Shown here piece by piece: positions 11,580-63,202 of a DNA stretch of 64,000 nt (its first letter is position 1; each line of letters begins with the position of its first letter). Location: positions 1 through 64,000 of the IMG/VR virus record IMGVR_UViG_2675903055_000001; one strand, written 5' to 3'. The notes beneath the pieces are model-generated. The model saw nothing but the letters and a program-made list of their open reading frames with translations. It was not told where the DNA came from and made no database searches. A program made the translations under genes and the position numbers. Origin of the DNA: a virus (lineage: Duplodnaviria; Caudoviricetes).

Positions 11580-13238
11580 TCAGGCGTGAACCCACGGCCA
11601 CGCGGCGGCCCGCCCCGACTCCAACAGCGGGATCATCCGGAACGCCTGATCCGTGAGCCCGCCAAACGTGTGCCGGCCCCTCCCACCCGACTGCGCATGC
11701 CCCACCCGGTAGCCAGCCAGATTCCACGTGTACATCGGCACCGACGACGGAACAGCCCGCATCACGTCGTCCGCGTCATGCCCCGCCTGCTCGTCCGTAA
11801 CGATCACAACCCTGTCGTGACCGGTGAACTCCTGACGGAGAGCCGCCGCTGTGTCGGTACCGCCCCCAAGGAACCAGCCACCGCCCTTCCACCGCTGCAC
11901 CGCCCGCAGCAGCGACTCACCCCTCTGCGCAGGGAACGCCTTCGTCCTCGCCCCCGGGCGGTCGTTCGTGTAGTAACGGGCCGACGAGAACGACACGACA
12001 TCCGCTCGCGCGCACCGCTGCCCCAACGCGATACCGAACAGGGCCGCAGCATCCCACCGCATCAGGCTGCCGTCCCGCGAGAACGGCTCGTTCATCGATG
12101 ACGAGGTGTCGACCAGGACCAGGGTGCGCCCTGCGAGCTGCGGGATGTTCGCGAGTGACGCGGACAGCGCCTTCTCCAGTGCGTAGCCCCAGCGCAGCGA
12201 CGGCGCCGCGTTGTACGCCGAGTAGAACCGCATCGGCAACTGACGTGAGCGTGCCACCTGCTCCGGGTCCGCGAGCTTCGCCGCGACCTGCTCCGCCGCC
12301 GCGTCGGACACGCCGGCCTCGTCGAAGTTGCGGAGGTTCCTGAGCAGCGCCATGTAGCCCATGGACGGGATGACCGCCTCCCACGCCTGCTTGTCCATCG
12401 GCCCCTGGAGCCAGCCGGCCAGCGCCTCCCACGTCATGCCAGCCTGCTGAAGGAGGTCGCCGTGGTTGGCGAGCACGTCCCTGCGCTGGTCAACTGGTGT
12501 GTACGTGAGCCGTTCACGCGCGAGCAGCATGGGGAGCCTGGCGGGGATCTCCTCGTCGCGCTTCATCCTGCGGTCGAGGGCGTGCTTGAACAGGTCGCCC
12601 TGCCACGCCTTGTTATCCGCCGGGCTGGGGTGGACGAGGTTGAGGACGTCGCCGAACCGGTACCCCTTGGATTCGGTGTCGTACTTGAGAAGGCTCCGCT
12701 CGTTGTACAGCCGCTGCACGGCGTCCGCGACCCCTCGCTTGATGGGCTTGGGCAGGCGTCGGCCGTAGCGGCTGGCCCAGTAGCCGAGCATTTCGCCGGG
12801 CTCGTCGGCGCGCTGGAGGACGGAGTCGATGACGCGCCGGTTCCAGCCTCCGCCGCTGGCCGATGCCGTCACCGTGTCGGGCGCCAGGTCACCGGCGGCC
12901 GTGGCGTCGAGGCGGGCCTTGACGAACTCGGCGGCGCCGACCAGCGCGGCGGTGCGCATGTTGGCGTCGCTGCGGAGCCAGCCCAGCAGTTCGACGCACC
13001 AGGCTGGGTCTTCGACGGCGAGCTGCCGTATGAGCTGGGTGTAGCGGTCGTCGCGCTGTCCGCCAGTCTCGTAGAACGTGTCCTGGCCGACCATGTTGGC
13101 GACGGCGAGGAGGAACAGCTCGGACTTGGTGTCGCGGAGGTAGCCGTGGCTGCCCTCGGCGGTGAGCGCACGCTCCCCGGTCGATGTCACGGGCGAGCTG
13201 GCAGACGGGCGGGCTGTGCGGGTGTTGAAGCGGGCCAC
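11580..13238 (-). CDS. rsr: Ro60/Rsr ortholog (TROVE + vWA domain RNA-binding protein)
   Basis: ELFLLAV, MRTAALV, SMGYMALLRNLRN TROVE motifs; vWA MIDAS LVLVDTSSSM, GGTD and IVTDEQ. Confidence 0.92.
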   Translation of the reverse strand: MARFNTRTARPSASSPVTSTGERALTAEGSHGYLRDTKSELFLLAVANMVGQDTFYETGGQRDDRYTQLIRQLAVEDPAWCVELLGWLRSDANMRTAALVGAAEFVKARLDATAAGDLAPDTVTASASGGGWNRRVIDSVLQRADEPGEMLGYWASRYGRRLPKPIKRGVADAVQRLYNERSLLKYDTESKGYRFGDVLNLVHPSPADNKAWQGDLFKHALDRRMKRDEEIPARLPMLLARERLTYTPVDQRRDVLANHGDLLQQAGMTWEALAGWLQGPMDKQAWEAVIPSMGYMALLRNLRNFDEAGVSDAAAEQVAAKLADPEQVARSRQLPMRFYSAYNAAPSLRWGYALEKALSASLANIPQLAGRTLVLVDTSSSMNEPFSRDGSLMRWDAAALFGIALGQRCARADVVSFSSARYYTNDRPGARTKAFPAQRGESLLRAVQRWKGGGWFLGGGTDTAAALRQEFTGHDRVVIVTDEQAGHDADDVMRAVPSSVPMYTWNLAGYRVGHAQSGGRGRHTFGGLTDQAFRMIPLLESGRAAAWPWVHA

Positions 13239-47191: not shown

Positions 47192-47442
47192 GCTGCCGCC
47201 CTGGGGCTGGTGGTGTGGGCGATGGCGCGGACTTCGAGAGCGTCGGCTTCGAGGTCGAGGATTGCTGCGAGAGTGTCGAGGTCGCAGTCAGGGGCGTCGG
47301 CGAGGTTGCGGCTGCTCGACGCGATGGCCCGTAGGAGGGCGATGACGGTGTCGCAGCCGAGGTAGGGCTGCCCGTCGCTTCCAACTGCGAGGGGTAGTCC
47401 GGTGGCGACCGGGGGCACGGGCCCGTCCTGGTCGTCGTTCAT
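47188..47442 (-). CDS. Hypothetical protein, paralog of 61093-61344
   Basis: Shared LLR.I/VA...ILD..ADALEVRAI. Confidence 0.65.
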   Translation of the reverse strand: MNDDQDGPVPPVATGLPLAVGSDGQPYLGCDTVIALLRAIASSSRNLADAPDCDLDTLAAILDLEADALEVRAIAHTTSPRAAA

Positions 47443-48248
47443 GCCGCTGCCTTTTCGGTCTGCGCCGGGGTGAGCGTGGGCATGGCGGGGATGGTCTGGG
47501 CGAGCCAGCCGTCGGGCGCTGTCGTGAAGTGCGGGGCGGCTGTCGCTCGCCACCAGGAGCGGACCGCGGTGGTGGCGGACGGCTGGCCGGTGCGTCGGTC
47601 GACGTACTCGATGGTGCGCTCACGGCTGTGCCGGGTGACGAGCCGTCCGCGCTTGCAGCCGTCGGGGTATTCGTTCCAGTTGATCCCGGCTTCGGACCAC
47701 AGGAGTTCCTGCATGCTGCCGCTGTTCACGCCGTGCAGGCGTTTGTGGGAGAAGTGGGCCTGCGCCGCCATCGAGATGGAGTTGCGGACGGCGTCGCGCT
47801 GCCGCCACAGGAAGTAGTTCGCCACTTCGACCGGGTCGGGAATGGTGAACACGCGGGCGTCGAACAGTGCCCGCTTGCCAGGGCGCTGTTCGTTGAGGAC
47901 CGCGGTGGCAAGGGCGGCGGCCATGGAGGTCTGCTTGGCAAGGATGCCACCGAACCACGGCTGGGTGGTGGGGGTGGCGAAGTCGGTGTAGAGGACGCTG
48001 ATCTCGTCGGACTGGGTGTAGGCGAACACGCTGCCGGTGATCTCGGTGCAGAGTGCTTCGGCCACGGCGTCCATTGCAGCCATGAACTGGTCGTCGAAGG
48101 GGCGTTGGGCGCCGCGCAGGTAGGTGTGCGCAGCTCGAATGTCGACGCGTAGGAGAGTGTGGGTCCGGCGTGGAAGCACCGCGCGGGTGACGGCCTCGTA
48201 GTCCTTCATCCGGTCCCCGAGAGGGGTGTTGTCCTTCACGGTGCCCAC
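47439..48248 (-). CDS. tRNA(His) guanylyltransferase Thg1-like protein (3'-5' polymerase)
   Basis: RMKDYE, LRVD..A.H, YTQSDEIS, FDAR.F, YFLWRQRD..RNSI. Confidence 0.92.
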   Translation of the reverse strand: MGTVKDNTPLGDRMKDYEAVTRAVLPRRTHTLLRVDIRAAHTYLRGAQRPFDDQFMAAMDAVAEALCTEITGSVFAYTQSDEISVLYTDFATPTTQPWFGGILAKQTSMAAALATAVLNEQRPGKRALFDARVFTIPDPVEVANYFLWRQRDAVRNSISMAAQAHFSHKRLHGVNSGSMQELLWSEAGINWNEYPDGCKRGRLVTRHSRERTIEYVDRRTGQPSATTAVRSWWRATAAPHFTTAPDGWLAQTIPAMPTLTPAQTEKAAA

Positions 48249-49634: not shown

Positions 49635-50099
49635 TCACTCACCCCAGCCAGGCACGACGGTGGTCGGTATGCCCTCCTCCGCCCATAGCGCGAGGACAGC
49701 CGGGTTGTCGTCCCAAGCGTGCACGGGCCTCCAGCGCTCACGGATGCGGGCGAGGATGCTTCGCTTCACTTCGTAGTCAGGACGCTGGTCGTGGTGAGCG
49801 CGCATCCACATCGCGTCGGACGGCACACCATGCAGGGCCAGCCACATGGCGGTGTGCGGCCGGAAGCGAACGGAGCGGGCCGTGACCACGAGTACGCCGA
49901 GCCCGGCGGCCCGCGCTTCGTGCGCGGCCCCAACGACGTGCGCATGCGGTGGGCAGTCGACGGACGCCGTGTGGAAGGCGTGGAAGCGGCCAGGCTCGTC
50001 GAGGAGATGGCGGATGCCGCGCACGTCGCACAGCGTCCCGTCCACATCGAAGATCACGGCGTCGCGCATAGCTCCATGATGCCCAGCCATGTCAGCCAA
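49635..50099 (-). CDS. HAD phosphatase resembling the 3'-phosphatase domain of polynucleotide kinase
   Basis: AVIFDVDGTL, VVTAR, MR...DQRPD..VK, WDDNP. Confidence 0.85.
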   Translation of the reverse strand: MADMAGHHGAMRDAVIFDVDGTLCDVRGIRHLLDEPGRFHAFHTASVDCPPHAHVVGAAHEARAAGLGVLVVTARSVRFRPHTAMWLALHGVPSDAMWMRAHHDQRPDYEVKRSILARIRERWRPVHAWDDNPAVLALWAEEGIPTTVVPGWGE

Positions 50100-58679: not shown

Positions 58680-58852
58680 CAGCCGGCCCGCCCCACGTGC
58701 TGACGCTGCTGCCCGTCGGTGCGGGGGTGGGCGCAGCAGTTGCGCCACGTTTGCCGGACGATGCCGTCTCCGGAGGTGTCCTCGACATAGCCGCCGCTGC
58801 CGTCGCACTGCTGCTCTTGGGTACCGGGCTCGGCCGGCTCGACGGCGGTCAC
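58679..58852 (-). CDS. Small Cys-containing protein
   Basis: CDGSGG...CC.H. Confidence 0.5.
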   Translation of the reverse strand: MTAVEPAEPGTQEQQCDGSGGYVEDTSGDGIVRQTWRNCCAHPRTDGQQRQHVGRAG

Positions 58853-59151
58853 AGCGTCACTCCCTCGTCGAGGGCGATCTGGATGCGGCGGTGGAGCAGG
58901 CGCGGCGGGGTCGGCTCGTGCGGGTTGCCGATCACCTTGAGGGCGGCCTCCACGTCGTCGCTCACGGCGGGCCCGTTGCTGCCGTGGATGCGGCGGGCGT
59001 GGAGGCCGAGGAGCAGCGGCACGTCGAGAACGCCGGGCCCACCGGCGCGGCTGATCGTGCCGTCGAGCCCGGTGAGGGTAGCGGTGAGGAGCTGGACGAC
59101 GCGTTGCGTCGGACTGTCGGGGTCGGCGTGGGTGCCGATAGCATCCGGCAT
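58849..59151 (-). CDS. Hypothetical protein, first gene of spread-like operon
   Basis: RBS AGGAGG at correct spacing. Confidence 0.6.
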   Translation of the reverse strand: MPDAIGTHADPDSPTQRVVQLLTATLTGLDGTISRAGGPGVLDVPLLLGLHARRIHGSNGPAVSDDVEAALKVIGNPHEPTPPRLLHRRIQIALDEGVTL

Positions 59152-59192
59152 GGTCATTCCTCCTGGTAGCGCAGGTAGGGGTGACTCCCGCG

Positions 59193-59297
59193 CCCGTGTG
59201 CGACCACGGGCCGGGGCTTGACGGTGCCCGGTGTGCGACCACCGGGCACCGTCGGTTTGGTGCGGCCCTGGTTCGTGTGCGACCACGAACCAGGGCC
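59193..59297. repeat. Three tandem hairpins with identical GTG-TGCGAC-CAC apex and different stems
   Basis: CCCGTG/CACGGG (59193-59210); ACGGTGCCCGGTG/CACCGGGCACCGT (59221-59252); GGCCCTGGTTCGTG/CACGAACCAGGGCC (59264-59297). Confidence 0.85.
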
Positions 59298-59331
59298 TTG
59301 TGCATTGGCAGCGTGGGCTGCTTGTCACCAA

Positions 59332-59349
59332 TGTATGGGCACCCATACA
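59332..59349. promoter_or_regulatory. Palindromic operator TGTATGGG-CA-CCCATACA in divergent promoter
   Basis: Perfect 8-bp arms between spread-like operon and HTH gene. Confidence 0.6.
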
Positions 59350-59383
59350 ATTAGGCAAGCGGCTCCCGAAGATGAGGAACGGG

Positions 59384-59695
59384 ATGACCGAAGAACCCAT
59401 CGACCAGGAGGCGCAGCGTGTGTTCGACGCTCTCGACGAAGTGGAAGCGATGACCGACCCGCTGGCCCGGGCGCGCGTGATCGGCTTGCTCCTGAAGGAC
59501 CAAGCGAAGCGCAACAAGAAGTTCCACGAGTACCGGCGGCAGGTCGTCCTCGAACTGCGCGAGCAGAAGGTGCCCTACCGCAAGATCGCCGAACAGTTGG
59601 GCGTGTCACTCGGCACGGTCCAAGACATCGAGCGTGGGGCAGGCCGCTGGACACAACGCCCGAGGAAGGACTCGCCGCAGGATGCACCCGAGTAG
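59384..59695 (+). CDS. HTH repressor (Kor-like role inferred)
   Basis: VPYRKIAEQLGVSLGTVQDIERG. Confidence 0.82.
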   Translation: MTEEPIDQEAQRVFDALDEVEAMTDPLARARVIGLLLKDQAKRNKKFHEYRRQVVLELREQKVPYRKIAEQLGVSLGTVQDIERGAGRWTQRPRKDSPQDAPE

Positions 59696-59737
59696 CAGCG
59701 GCCGGTTGGTTCGGCCTCGCCTCCGAGGAGACCACCG

Positions 59738-60274
59738 ATGAGCGCGTCAAGCGACTCCGCCGCCAAGCCCCGCCGTGCCGCTGTGTACCGCCTGTGGGAC
59801 TCCGAGGGCAACCTCTTGTACATCGGCTCGGCCTACGACCCGGACCACCGTTGCCAGGCCCACAGGCAACAACCTTGGTGGCCGGCAGTCACACGCCGCA
59901 CCGAAGAGTGGCACGCGGGGCGCCGCAACGCATACATCGCTGAGCTCGAAGCCATAGCGAAAGAACGTCCCACGCACAACTTGATGGGCACGCTGGAGTA
60001 CCAGACGCCCAGCACCGAAAAGGTTCAGCGCCGGAACGAGCTCGCACCTCTCCGAGGGCGTCTCACCCGAGAAGCTGACCTGCTGGCAGCGAGGGTGACT
60101 CGCGAGTCGCGAGCCGCGGGCGCCTCCAGTTACGAAGCAGAGCGGGCTGGCAAGCTGGCAGCGATCGACTTTCTGGAAGACACGGGCCTATTCGATGGAG
60201 CGGTCAAATGGCGGCGAAGGCAGGTGGCTTACGATGCGCGCCGCCACGAAGAGGAGCAGCGTGATGACAGCTGA
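59738..60274 (+). CDS. GIY-YIG nuclease domain protein (paralog of 6722-7168)
   Basis: AVYRLWDSEGNLLYIGSA...H..QPWW...E..AI..E.P.HN. Confidence 0.85.
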   Translation: MSASSDSAAKPRRAAVYRLWDSEGNLLYIGSAYDPDHRCQAHRQQPWWPAVTRRTEEWHAGRRNAYIAELEAIAKERPTHNLMGTLEYQTPSTEKVQRRNELAPLRGRLTREADLLAARVTRESRAAGASSYEAERAGKLAAIDFLEDTGLFDGAVKWRRRQVAYDARRHEEEQRDDS

Positions 60275-60395
60275 GGAGTCGGAGCCGGTCTACTGGTGGT
60301 GCAACTCGTGCGGCGAGGAGGTCCAGGACGAGACCGTCGAGTGCTGCGGTGACGGCGAGATCGTCCCCTCCTACGACGAGAGCGGTGCCCGATGA
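60264..60395 (+). CDS. Small Zn-ribbon protein
   Basis: WWCNSC...ECC. Confidence 0.5.
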   Translation: MTAEESEPVYWWCNSCGEEVQDETVECCGDGEIVPSYDESGAR

Positions 60396-60436
60396 CGGCG
60401 GACCACCCCGACTACCGCGAGGAGTGGCGGCCGTGA
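60392..60436 (+). pseudogene. 14-codon remnant of DUF6221-like C-terminus (MTADHPDYREEWRP)
   Basis: 35 bp identical (inverted) to 7479-7513; coupled by ATGA/GTGA overlaps. Confidence 0.6.
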
Positions 60437-60726
60437 GCGTGCAGGAGCTGACAGCCGAGCAGATGGCCGAGCTGCGCTGGCAGTTGAACAGCCGCCCCGT
60501 GCGGGCCCTCGGCACCATTGCGCGGGGTGAGCCTCTGCCGCCTCTGCCGCGCTGCCCTGGGTGTGGTGCGGTAGCCGAGCGCGTGGATGAGCGGCTTGAG
60601 GACCCGCAGTTCGGTGTGTATGAGACGGCGCTGCTGGCCCGGTGGCTGCCATGCGGCCACCGGTTCCGTGGGATCGTCGACCCGTTCGCGGAATCGGTGC
60701 GCCCGGGCGGGAGGTGGCGGCCGTGA
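60433..60726 (+). CDS. Small Zn-binding protein, paralog of 7939-8193
   Basis: PPLPRCPGC...LPCGHRF. Confidence 0.6.
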   Translation: MSVQELTAEQMAELRWQLNSRPVRALGTIARGEPLPPLPRCPGCGAVAERVDERLEDPQFGVYETALLARWLPCGHRFRGIVDPFAESVRPGGRWRP

Positions 60727-60986
60727 CTGCCCGGCCGCCGCTGGTCACGGACCACTGGTTCCGTGAAGGCCCGGTCCAGCCCGACGGCTCGGACGGCTAT
60801 TGGATCTGCGGCCGCTGTGGCCAGCACCGGGGCGACCATCTGCAAGTCGAAGGTGACTGGCTGCTGCCCCTGCACGCAGTCGTCCCCATGCGGATTCGGC
60901 CGAGGCACTGCAAGGCATGTGGCAGGGAGCGACGCCATACGACGCACACCCCGTGGAGGTGGGAGTCCTTGGGGGCCGCGGAGTGA
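60723..60986 (+). CDS. Small Zn-binding hypothetical protein
   Basis: CGRC..H..H; CKAC...H. Confidence 0.55.
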   Translation: MTARPPLVTDHWFREGPVQPDGSDGYWICGRCGQHRGDHLQVEGDWLLPLHAVVPMRIRPRHCKACGRERRHTTHTPWRWESLGAAE

Positions 60987-61092
60987 CCGGTCTCGTTCCG
61001 CGCCCGTCGGCGGAGTCGTCGGCCGGCTGGCCCGACCCCGGCGACGTGTGAGCGCCCCGCCCGGTTGGGCGGGGCGTCGTCGTGTGCGGCGG

Positions 61093-61344
61093 TCAGGCCA
61101 TTGGCTCGCCCGCCTGAGTCGTCGCTTCGATGGCGCGGACTTCCAGCGCGTCAGCGTTTCGGTCCAGGATCCGCGCGAACATCCCGATCGACACGTCTGG
61201 GTCGTCTTCGTTTCCGCGCATCACGATCGCCACGGAGCGGAGCAGGTCTACGACTGCCCATGTCGGGAGGAACGTCTCCCCCTGTTCGTTCAGGACGATG
61301 TCCATGTGGCTGGCTGTCGTCTCTGTCTGCTCTCCGTCGTCCAT
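61093..61344 (-). CDS. Hypothetical protein, paralog of 47188-47442
   Basis: ILDRNADALEVRAI. Confidence 0.65.
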   Translation of the reverse strand: MDDGEQTETTASHMDIVLNEQGETFLPTWAVVDLLRSVAIVMRGNEDDPDVSIGMFARILDRNADALEVRAIEATTQAGEPMA

Positions 61345-61444
61345 GTGCGCCCCCCTGTGTTGTGTTGGTACACGGTATGTGCGGTTCGTTGGGTTGGTGC
61401 GGGAGTTGCGCCAGCCCGGCCGGAGGGGGACGGCCGGGCGGGGG

Positions 61445-61639
61445 TCAGTGGTGGCGGCGGATGCGTGCGGCTTTGAGGGCGGCGAGTTCGGCTCGTGCCC
61501 GGTGGCCGGCGGCTTCCCGGTGAGCGGCTTGGGCGCGGCGGGCGTGCCGGCTGGTGTCGACCGCGCACCAGACAGCAGCCGCGGCCAGGGCGAGGGCGAC
61601 GAAGGCGAGAACGATGTCGGTCACGGTGGGGTCGGTCAT
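61445..61639 (-). CDS. Small membrane protein
   Basis: N-terminal TM helix. Confidence 0.55.
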   Translation of the reverse strand: MTDPTVTDIVLAFVALALAAAAVWCAVDTSRHARRAQAAHREAAGHRARAELAALKAARIRRHH

Positions 61640-61833
61640 GGCTGGCTCCTGTCGAGGTGGTGTGCGAGGTGTCCGCCGTACATGGCGAGAGCGGAGGCGA
61701 TCTGCTGGCCCCAGCCGTCGGGGTCGATGGGGCGGCCGGCAGCGTCCCATTCGGCGCCGAGGTCTTGGAGGGTGTTCCAGTAGGCGCGGCAGGAGTCACA
61801 GGCTGTGGTGATCTCCTGCCGCTCCCACGTCAC
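61636..61833 (-). CDS. Hypothetical protein
   Basis: CDSC; coupled. Confidence 0.5.
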   Translation of the reverse strand: MTWERQEITTACDSCRAYWNTLQDLGAEWDAAGRPIDPDGWGQQIASALAMYGGHLAHHLDRSQP

Positions 61834-62225
61834 GGCTGCTCCTGGTTGATGGTGCGGGCGACGGCGAGGGCGTGGGGGCCGCCACCGCCGCGGTGGCCCC
61901 ACTCGGCGAGGGTGTACGCCTCTTGCTGGGCCGCGTGCTCCAGCCAGTCGGCGAGGGCGAGGCCGATGCCGGGGTGCATGGCGGCGATGTAGGCGGCGTC
62001 GGCCCACACGTTGCGGGTCTCGTCCCACGATTCCTGGCTCATCGTCGGCAACCAGGCGCGGAGTTCGGTGTCGTTGCGCTCGCCGGACAGGACGGTCGCG
62101 GTGTGCCCGTACTGGCCGAGGTGGGTGTCGTGCTGGCGCCACGGGCCGGGGGTGGCGGCGGTGGCGAGCGCCCGCAGGCGTGCGGCGGCGGTGCGGAGTT
62201 CGTCGGCGGGGCTGGGGTCGGTCAC
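61830..62225 (-). CDS. Hypothetical protein (ATPGPW, ead/DUF6221-related motif)
   Basis: ELRTAAARLRALATAATPGPW...YIAAMHP. Confidence 0.65.
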   Translation of the reverse strand: MTDPSPADELRTAAARLRALATAATPGPWRQHDTHLGQYGHTATVLSGERNDTELRAWLPTMSQESWDETRNVWADAAYIAAMHPGIGLALADWLEHAAQQEAYTLAEWGHRGGGGPHALAVARTINQEQP

Positions 62226-63202
62226 GGCTGCTCCTCGATGCCGTGGCAGTCGCATCCGCAGGGGACACCGGTGAACTTGTTGTTGCGGCGACACCTGTCG
62301 TGGAGGTGGTCGGCCGCCGCCCGGAGTTCCTCGGCGTGTTCGGTGTGGACGTCGACTACGCGCTCGCACTCGCGGGCCGTCTCACATGCGGTGCTGGTGT
62401 ACGGCGGCACGTCGATCAGGCGGAGCAGGTGGTCGGGGAGCTGCTCGCGGGTGCTGCCGGGCGGGGGCGGGGTGAAGTCGTCGGTCACGGTCAGCTTCTT
62501 GGCGGGCTGGATGACGATGTCTTTGCCGAGGAGGCGGAAGACCTCGCGGATGGTGTCCAGGCTGAGCCCGTTGATCAGTTCGCCGATGGGCGTGGTGAGG
62601 TCGATGGGTACCCACGGGGCGGGTGGGGCTGCGTCGCGCCGCGTGCAGCGGCCGGCTCGGACGTGGCCGTCGGCGCACTCCTCGCCGCAGTGGGCGGCGG
62701 TTCGGGCGCACGGGGTCTGGCGGCAGGAGCAGTTGGCGCAGTGCTCGCAGAACGGCTGGTTCCGGTAGTTGTGGTAGACGATCTCTTCCGAGTCGCAGCC
62801 GACGCAGCGTTCGGCTAGCTGCCAGCGCGTGCCGTGGTCGTTGGCGTGGCTGCCGTAGTGGCCGGGGTGCAGCACGCACTCCTCACGAATGGCGCCGAAC
62901 GGGTCAGTGGGCGACAGATCGCCGCAGCGCTCGGGCGGTGGGTGCTGTTCGCGGGTGTGGCGTTTCAGTTCGGCGTGGCTGGTGGTGCGGAAGTCGGGGC
63001 AGTCCCAGCAGCCGTAGTTGACGGGTGTGGTCATGGTGGTCTCCGGGGTGGTGCGGAAGGTGTCGGGGGCGACAGTCGGTGTGAGGGTTTCGAGAGCCCG
63101 GTCGAGGCTGGCGAGCGTCTCGCGCTGCCGGGCGGGGTCGGTGAGTACTCGGCGGGCAAAGGCCCATCCGCAGCAGTCGGGGCTGGGGTTGGGGTTGGTC
63201 AT
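62222..63202 (-). CDS. Multi-zinc-finger hypothetical protein
   Basis: CxxC..H..H, CxxC repeats; RBS AAGGGA. Confidence 0.6.
   Translation of the reverse strand: MTNPNPSPDCCGWAFARRVLTDPARQRETLASLDRALETLTPTVAPDTFRTTPETTMTTPVNYGCWDCPDFRTTSHAELKRHTREQHPPPERCGDLSPTDPFGAIREECVLHPGHYGSHANDHGTRWQLAERCVGCDSEEIVYHNYRNQPFCEHCANCSCRQTPCARTAAHCGEECADGHVRAGRCTRRDAAPPAPWVPIDLTTPIGELINGLSLDTIREVFRLLGKDIVIQPAKKLTVTDDFTPPPPGSTREQLPDHLLRLIDVPPYTSTACETARECERVVDVHTEHAEELRAAADHLHDRCRRNNKFTGVPCGCDCHGIEEQP

Follow-up and report, generated by a model that had tools for sequence, protein, structure and literature searches.

An array of identical-loop hairpins conserved in Streptomyces prophages is a candidate cis-antisense control cassette

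The window, as we call the whole 64,000-nucleotide stretch of DNA analysed here, has a GC content of 69% and carries a tailed prophage, with the tape-measure, terminase, primase and HNH genes on the minus strand. The locus of interest is a 232-bp gap (59153-59384) between the first gene of a leftward operon and a rightward gene for a small helix-turn-helix (HTH) protein (Table 1). The product of the first gene was assigned to no Pfam or PHROG family, and the HTH protein is presumed to be the regulator that binds the palindromic operator within the gap. An earlier note on this DNA had described the leftward genes as a spread-like operon; we abandon this label, since the ~20 neighbouring ORFs included no spread, TraB or relaxase family in Pfam and PHROGs.

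The wider surroundings hold several genes that deserve mention in their own right. Directly after the HTH gene lies a gene for a GIY-YIG endonuclease (59738-60274, plus strand; PHROG E-value 5e-15) with lower GC3, probably a homing endonuclease insertion. An Ead/Ea22-like protein (61830-62369, minus strand; Pfam E-value 1e-6) heads another leftward gene block, which converges on the short rightward block at 59384-61783. Elsewhere in the window, a 552-aa ORF (11580-13238, minus strand) contains a TROVE domain (Ro60/Rsr-like; Pfam E-value 9e-16). Since Y RNAs are the ligands of bacterial Ro proteins, an RNA partner might be encoded close to this ORF. Two further prophage genes on the minus strand (47439-48248 and 49635-50099) encode a Thg1-like tRNA-His guanylyltransferase and a polynucleotide kinase, a combination that suggests an RNA or tRNA repair module.

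Table 1. Coordinates of the features in and around the gap, as positions in the window (SD, Shine-Dalgarno sequence).
Feature	Position	Strand	Description
First gene of leftward operon	58849..59151	-	100 aa; ATG at 59151-59149; SD AGGAGG; from GC-frame analysis and ORF reading
Predicted -10 element of P_anti	59139..59144	+	TAGCAT; inside codons 3-5 of the leftward first gene
P0 hairpin	59153..59185	.	core CCTG..CAGG; buries the first-gene SD in the leftward RNA (folds)
H1, extended form	59186-59216		one bulge
H1	59192-59211	+	7-bp perfect stem; loop TGCGAC at 59199-59204; hairpin scan
H2	59220-59253	+	14-bp perfect stem; loop TGCGAC at 59234-59239; GGTTTGG directly 3'
H3	59264-59297	+	14-bp perfect stem; loop TGCGAC at 59278-59283
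T-enriched tail	59298..59307	+	TTGTGCATTG in the window, CTTTGTGCTGA in most relatives; predicted 3' end of the antisense RNA
P_R, promoter for the HTH gene	59322..59351	+	TTGTCA, 18 nt, TACAAT
P_L	59330..59358	-	-35 TTGCCT (59358-59353), 17-nt spacer, -10 TACATT (59335-59330); predicted start ~59323
Operator, palindromic	59332..59349	.	TGTATGGG-CA-CCCATACA; overlaps the -10 of both P_L and P_R
Small HTH protein gene	59384..59695	+	103 aa; HTH_23 / sigma-70 region 4-like

Three hairpins, H1 to H3, occupy the middle of the gap and all present the loop TGCGAC, closed in each case by GTG/CAC. The sequence and a hairpin scan both confirm these identical loops, which the earlier note had pointed out; the stem lengths given there (6, 13 and 14 bp) were slightly off, the perfect stems measuring 7, 14 and 14 bp. 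H2 and H3 are, tied at 14 bp, the longest perfect hairpins of the 64-kb window. That no gene explains the array was likewise upheld: with spacings of 35 and 44 nt, the three copies of the 12-mer apex (GTG-TGCGAC-CAC) fall into three different reading frames, and a coding repeat or repeated peptide is therefore rejected. The 12-mer occurs four times in the 7.2-Mb genome, three of these copies being those in the array. Across 400 genomes of the genus, the 12-mer and its reversed control are equally frequent, at background level, which rules out a dispersed repeat. When the 7.2-Mb genome was scanned for groups of at least three adjacent hairpins that share a 6-7-nt loop but differ in their stems, H1-H3 was the sole array found. 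Both strands fold far more stably than their shuffled counterparts, with z-scores of -7.8 and -9.3, the latter for the leftward leader. The array is beyond chance.

How widespread is this arrangement? Pattern and covariance-model searches place the same array in at least 13 Streptomyces prophages (12 loci besides that of the window). The pattern search, in which two 12-mer copies had to lie within 15-45 nt, found this arrangement in nine Streptomyces species genomes and in four viral contigs. A triple-motif scan, run on viral and metagenome contigs, added two members (L108 and L137), and the covariance model recovered another (L247) as well as a variant (L245). In the 13 aligned arrays, 96.3% of the cells are standard pairs and 21 of the 32 stem pairs show compensatory changes on both sides; in H2, such changes affect 10 of the 14 pairs across the family. 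None of 500 shuffles matched the observed values for pairing and covariation, and sliding the partner by 1-3 columns as a control left pairing at only 36-48%. The TGCGAC loop is kept in 38 of 39 hairpins, while the pairs that close it vary with compensation (GTG/CAC, GCG/CGC, CCG/CGG and GAA/TTC). This covariation around an invariant loop bears out the earlier proposal that selection acts on structure plus loop. The variant L245 departs from TGCGAC in all three loops at once, which read TGTCGT, TGTCGC or TGTCAT (a class written here as TGTCGY).

One Streptomyces genome (G115) contains two array-bearing prophages (C891:2018-2150 and C419:15944-16086). Both arrays have TGCGAC loops, with closing pairs GTG/CAC as against GTG/TAC and GAA/TTC.

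The order of elements is constant in all loci: first-gene start, SD hairpin, H1, H2, H3, CTTTGTGCTGA, promoter/operator and small HTH gene. On the best reading, the hairpins belong to a portable control cassette of ~200 bp in temperate Streptomyces phages. The earlier note had made conservation of the motif upstream of homologous operons its test; the motif proved to be conserved, but the operons that follow it are not homologous.

A number of further matches were set aside. Apart from L108 and L137, the triple-motif matches were mostly unrelated tandem repeats, those in giant-virus MAGs included. Tandem repeats of 15-46 bp that contain GTGCGACC occur in Gammaproteobacteria, Stenotrophomonas, Plantactinospora and giant-virus MAGs (L046, L038, L044, L037 and many others); as possible kin of the hairpin array they were rejected, being unrelated to it. 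A flank-motif scan returned random matches only, a weak plasmid match (L266) proved to be a non-member, and four weak model matches (L246, L267, L268 and L269, the last in genome G426) were single hairpins and were left out. The unpublished genomes G130 and G426 underlie none of the claims made here. Arrays with GGTGACAC loops were absent from the matches listed.

A likeness of a different kind was seen in an acidobacterium, a Pyrinomonadaceae MAG (L039:594-685; DASQMB010000064.1). There, two hairpins with unrelated stems carry the apex GTG-TGCGAC-CAC and sit between a promoter-like site and the DDE transposase gene of an IS element. Convergence, chance or a shared partner may underlie this resemblance.

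P_L lies to the right of H3, and this places the array within the 5′ leader (~170 nt) of the leftward operon. A minus-strand TTGnnn-16/18-TAnnnT whose -10 ends 28-48 nt from the H3 loop is found in 11 of the 14 loci, and the -10 alone in two more. With this conserved promoter, the earlier placement of the array in the leader of the leftward operon, beside an operator and a divergent HTH gene, is borne out. The operator sequence is different in each phage. P_R, in turn, is the only consensus promoter match between 58800 and 59800, where shuffled sequences led us to expect 0.0. At the far end of the leader, CCTG-N6-8-CAGG recurs at the position of the P0 hairpin in 13 of the 14 loci.

Which of the two strands is selected to fold? 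In the model alignment, G.U pairs number 25 on the plus strand and 4 on the minus strand (binomial p ~1e-4, a value to be read as an indication rather than a probability, as a plus-strand model was used to fit the alignment, whose sequences are related to one another). An ungapped, model-free count outward from the loops, which scored single non-Watson-Crick positions flanked by pairs, gave 11 G.T on the plus strand against 2 A.C. Two loops of L247 are closed by a plus-strand G.U, and in 9 of 12 loci the folding energies are better for the plus strand. The wobble bias would, however, also fit plus-strand single-stranded DNA.

The flank of the array carries a further strand-specific feature. 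In 11 of the 13 array loci, the plus strand has a TAnnnT at 20-25 nt to the left of the SD hairpin, mostly with no other TAnnnT in ~120 nt of flank. The hexamer falls in codons 3-5 of unrelated first genes, with only T1, A2 and T6 invariant and with different residues encoded over it (K-R-T, H-S-T, D-A-I, N-T-I and others). A pattern of three fixed bases amid differing residues is, as judged from sequence, the mark of a -10 element. The hexamer of the window, TAGCAT, predicts a transcription start at ~59151, on the complement of the start codon; this putative promoter, P_anti, consists of a -10-like hexamer only, with no recognisable -35.

At the opposite end, T-rich tails follow H2 and H3, and the 9 nt after the hairpins contain on average 2.25 T on the plus strand vs 0.5 on the minus strand. 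Of H3, a GC hairpin, only the plus strand shows such T enrichment in the tail, and the two together stand ~18 nt short of the predicted P_L start. The tail coincides with the first bases of the leftward leader, and CTTTGTGCTGA is conserved in alignments A1 and A3. The U-tracts are weak and a strict consensus terminator scan returned 0 terminators; H3 is predicted to be the terminator hairpin of an antisense RNA.

Three independent observations, the wobble bias, the TAnnnT hexamer and the T content, thus point to the plus strand (loops UGCGAC), antisense to the leader, as the folded one. In view of the G.U bias, the hexamer and the T-rich tails after H2 and H3, a promoter facing P_L most likely makes an antisense RNA of ~155 nt, roughly from 59151 to 59305. 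According to sequence and folds, this predicted RNA is complementary to the whole leader, the SD and the start codon included, and the complement of P0 forms its 5′ hairpin.

Relatives with a single hairpin (L389-L396 and L518), which were fetched through two HTH protein families, have the same cassette, with one GC-rich hairpin and a T-rich tail at the position of H3. The TAnnnT is at the same place in 9/9, the SD hairpin is present in 6/8 of L389-L396 and also in L518, and L518 has the minus-strand -10. G.U pairs again favour the plus strand (13 vs 3). Since these relatives share the hexamer, the T-rich tail and the strand bias, the general element resembles a gene for a small antisense RNA that faces P_L, and the triple array with matched loops looks like a derived form of this element, with H3 as its predicted terminator hairpin. 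The loops of L389, L391, L393 and L394 often hold TGCGA or its complement TCGCA, in either orientation; the TGCGA core may be favoured for loop-loop pairing.

Does a phage protein travel with the array? The genes flanking the arrays on both sides belong to several unrelated families, and the rightward genes at the other array loci to at least three different HTH families. Clustering the ORFs of 12 loci yielded no conserved partner protein. When ORFs were clustered across six records (five whole viral records and the 90 kb around the window), only the tape-measure family was found, in 5/6. Likewise, when every window ORF of at least 45 aa was compared by tblastn with the five whole viral records, only a spurious frame running across the array matched three or more of them. 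At BLAST sensitivity, the array thus appears to be conserved better than any protein of the phages that carry it.

What could such a cassette do? With moderate confidence, we favour the view that the array is a cis-antisense control cassette whose identical loops act as recognition tags. The operator-controlled P_L would transcribe leftward through the array into the early operon, giving a leader that ends in the hairpin burying the ribosome-binding site. P_anti, within the first codons of the first gene, would transcribe rightward and produce an untranslated RNA of ~155 nt, composed in order of the complement of the ribosome-site hairpin, H1, H2 and H3. H3 and its U-rich tail would end this RNA ~18 nt before the start of P_L, and it would be the fold of the antisense RNA strand on which selection acts. 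Pairing of the antisense RNA with the leader would be initiated by the hexaloops, which are complementary (UGCGAC in the former, GUCGCA in the latter); the three loops being identical, any hairpin could dock on any other. As pairing spreads over the ribosome-binding site and the start codon, it may prevent translation or make the leader liable to double-strand-specific cleavage, and the leftward early transcript would be silenced or destabilised. An RNA layer would in this way be added to the repressor/operator control of the early operon.

Kissing between the loops of a cis-encoded pair is, however, insufficient to account for all of these features. Both strands of such a pair keep their complementarity after any loop mutation, and kissing alone can therefore not explain the invariance of TGCGAC; it also fails to predict the concerted change of all three loops in L245. 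Besides, the YUNR U-turn motif is absent from the loops. That TGCGAC is invariant despite diverged stems and proteins argues for a further partner, be it a host factor or, by action in trans, other phages. More tentatively, and at a probability that we would call low though appreciable, the hexaloops might be a portable tag on a cassette that moves between unrelated Streptomyces phages, read by a conserved host RNA-binding factor or used by the antisense RNA of a resident prophage to dock in trans on incoming leaders. If true, trans docking would join that RNA, through three loop-loop contacts, to the early leader of every incoming phage that bears the tag. It would amount to a class of RNA-based cross-immunity that does not depend on the protein repressor, and the TGTCGY variant would be its escape class. 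Among host tRNAs, only tRNA-fMet and tRNA-Arg contain a complement of the loops, a 6-mer match in the variable-loop/T-stem region that we ascribe to chance (rRNA genes are absent from the assembly). To our knowledge, the array fits none of the DnaA box, CRP, DasR, WhiA or LexA sites.

Several alternatives to the cis-antisense cassette need to be weighed against these data. Foremost among them, though in our judgement unlikely, the loops might be where a conserved factor of the host docks, for instance RNA polymerase, a ribonuclease or some RNA-binding protein. Such a factor could bind the plus-strand RNA, with effects on stability or termination or with the RNA as a sponge, or else the leader, and the antisense layout would then be secondary. 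A host partner would agree with a loop that is invariant while its closing pairs and the stems vary, with the lack of a phage protein common to the carriers (only the array matches at least three of the five records), with the same loop in the two array-bearing prophages of G115, and with the acidobacterial IS element, whose two hairpins upstream of the transposase have the same 12-nt apex. Against it, no candidate presents itself, Actinobacteria are not known to possess CsrA or Hfq, the three-loop change in L245 sits less easily with a host partner common to all, and the single-hairpin relatives display many different loops.

Alternatively, the array could work in cis on the leftward leader, its loops there reading GUCGCA, either as an antitermination site of the nut/boxB or put kind or in translational control of the first gene. 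Its situation would suit this role: a conserved promoter lies immediately upstream, the array heads a ~40-kb co-oriented block that continues through hairpin clusters as far as the structural genes, and its position is that of nutL and putL; the leader also folds very stably (z -9.3), with the SD sequestered. Yet the wobbles are biased toward the other strand in both counts (25 vs 4 and 11 vs 2), an N-like protein is not conserved and the first genes belong to several unrelated families, the other operons have no second copy, and the plus-strand TAnnnT and T tails would be left unexplained. We consider this reading improbable. The boxB-like protein binding in the leftward transcript that the earlier note had entertained is not supported: the wobbles favour the opposite strand, and no N-like or other protein is shared by the phages that carry the array.

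That the hairpins are merely three tandem intrinsic terminators, or an insulator, stopping rightward transcription short of the operator and promoter region, with no recognition role for the apex, we hold to be very unlikely. They are GC-rich and have T-enriched tails on the plus strand only, and the relatives show a single hairpin of this sort in the same position; this reading would, however, lead one to expect neither an invariant hexaloop in 13 diverged arrays nor a concerted variant, and the strict terminator scan retrieved no terminator.

Least probable, to the point that we give it hardly any weight, are DNA-level hairpins or cruciforms between divergent promoters that serve as an origin, priming or nicking site: the G.T bias also suits single-stranded DNA, three hairpins resemble G4-type priming signals, the phage encodes a primase-polymerase and divergent promoters would give negative supercoiling, but the replication genes are ~20 kb away, the primase is not common to the other carriers, the single-strand-origin CS-6 sequence (TAGCGT) is absent from the region, and the nick, transfer or priming sites suggested earlier lose their footing because the ~20 neighbouring ORFs encode no Rep, relaxase or TraB (Pfam and PHROGs) and the promoter-like hexamer and T-rich tails, U-rich in a transcript, suit RNA better.

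How does the favoured cis-antisense cassette compare with known systems? Comparison with existing collections gave no assignment: searched with Rfam 15 (E-values up to 10), the array reached the gathering threshold of no family (the best match was VA, with 25.9 bits against a threshold of 62), it had no blastn match among the sequenced phages of INPHARED, and in the literature we found no description of it. Its architecture recalls two RNA classes in which tandem hairpins with identical, conserved loops stand on free stems, namely the actinobacterial 6C RNA (Rfam RF01066) and the guanidine-II riboswitch (mini-ykkC). The array loops are, however, neither C-rich, as in 6C, nor ACGR tetraloops, as in guanidine-II, and the array differs in having three hairpins and another genomic setting. 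The 6C model scored a non-significant 21.9 bits on the array (E-value 1.7; threshold 47), and guanidine-II gave no match.

The lambda nut and HK022 put sites likewise comprise hairpins just downstream of an operator-controlled early promoter, at the head of a long operon, with a conserved loop and a variable stem. The array departs from both in its antisense strand bias, in lacking a conserved N-like protein and in being present once per phage. It also has a hexaloop in place of the GNRA-like pentaloop of lambda nut, and we saw no boxA. For HK022 put, the position of the array fits, whereas the strand bias argues against the parallel.

Comparable, too, are the antisense RNAs of P22 (sar RNA, directed against ant) and IS10 (RNA-OUT, directed against RNA-IN), each of ~69 nt with one hairpin. 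As proposed for the array, these small RNAs arise from a promoter that faces the phage or transposon operon and overlie the start codon and ribosome-binding site of its first gene; both are shorter, have no array of matched loops and bear no sequence relation to it.

The nearest parallel may be drawn to the countertranscripts that control plasmids, often together with a repressor: RNA I/RNA II of ColE1, where RNA I has three stem-loops, CopA/CopT of R1 with CopB, and RNAII of pMV158 with CopG. The RNA predicted here would share with them a short untranslated transcript, a facing promoter and full complementarity to the leader, and the mechanism that we propose would add stem-loops whose loops start the pairing, a terminator end and a repressor acting on the target promoter. 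Two differences stand out. First, the array resides in a tailed prophage and not in a plasmid replicon, and it has no Rop-like protein. Second, the plasmid loops differ within one RNA and define incompatibility, whereas the array loops are identical to one another and conserved across unrelated phages. The array is a candidate for an undescribed RNA family within cis-antisense regulation, and one that could be used in annotating actinobacterial prophages. If our reading is true, the early operon of many temperate Streptomyces phages is protected, beyond repressor and operator, by a second layer made of RNA and encoded in a small, self-contained cassette. This cassette could become a compact regulatory part for Streptomyces engineering. 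The matched, invariant loops fall outside the ordinary logic of cis-antisense control and pose a testable question, namely whether their reader is a host factor, a sister RNA or the RNAs of other phages.
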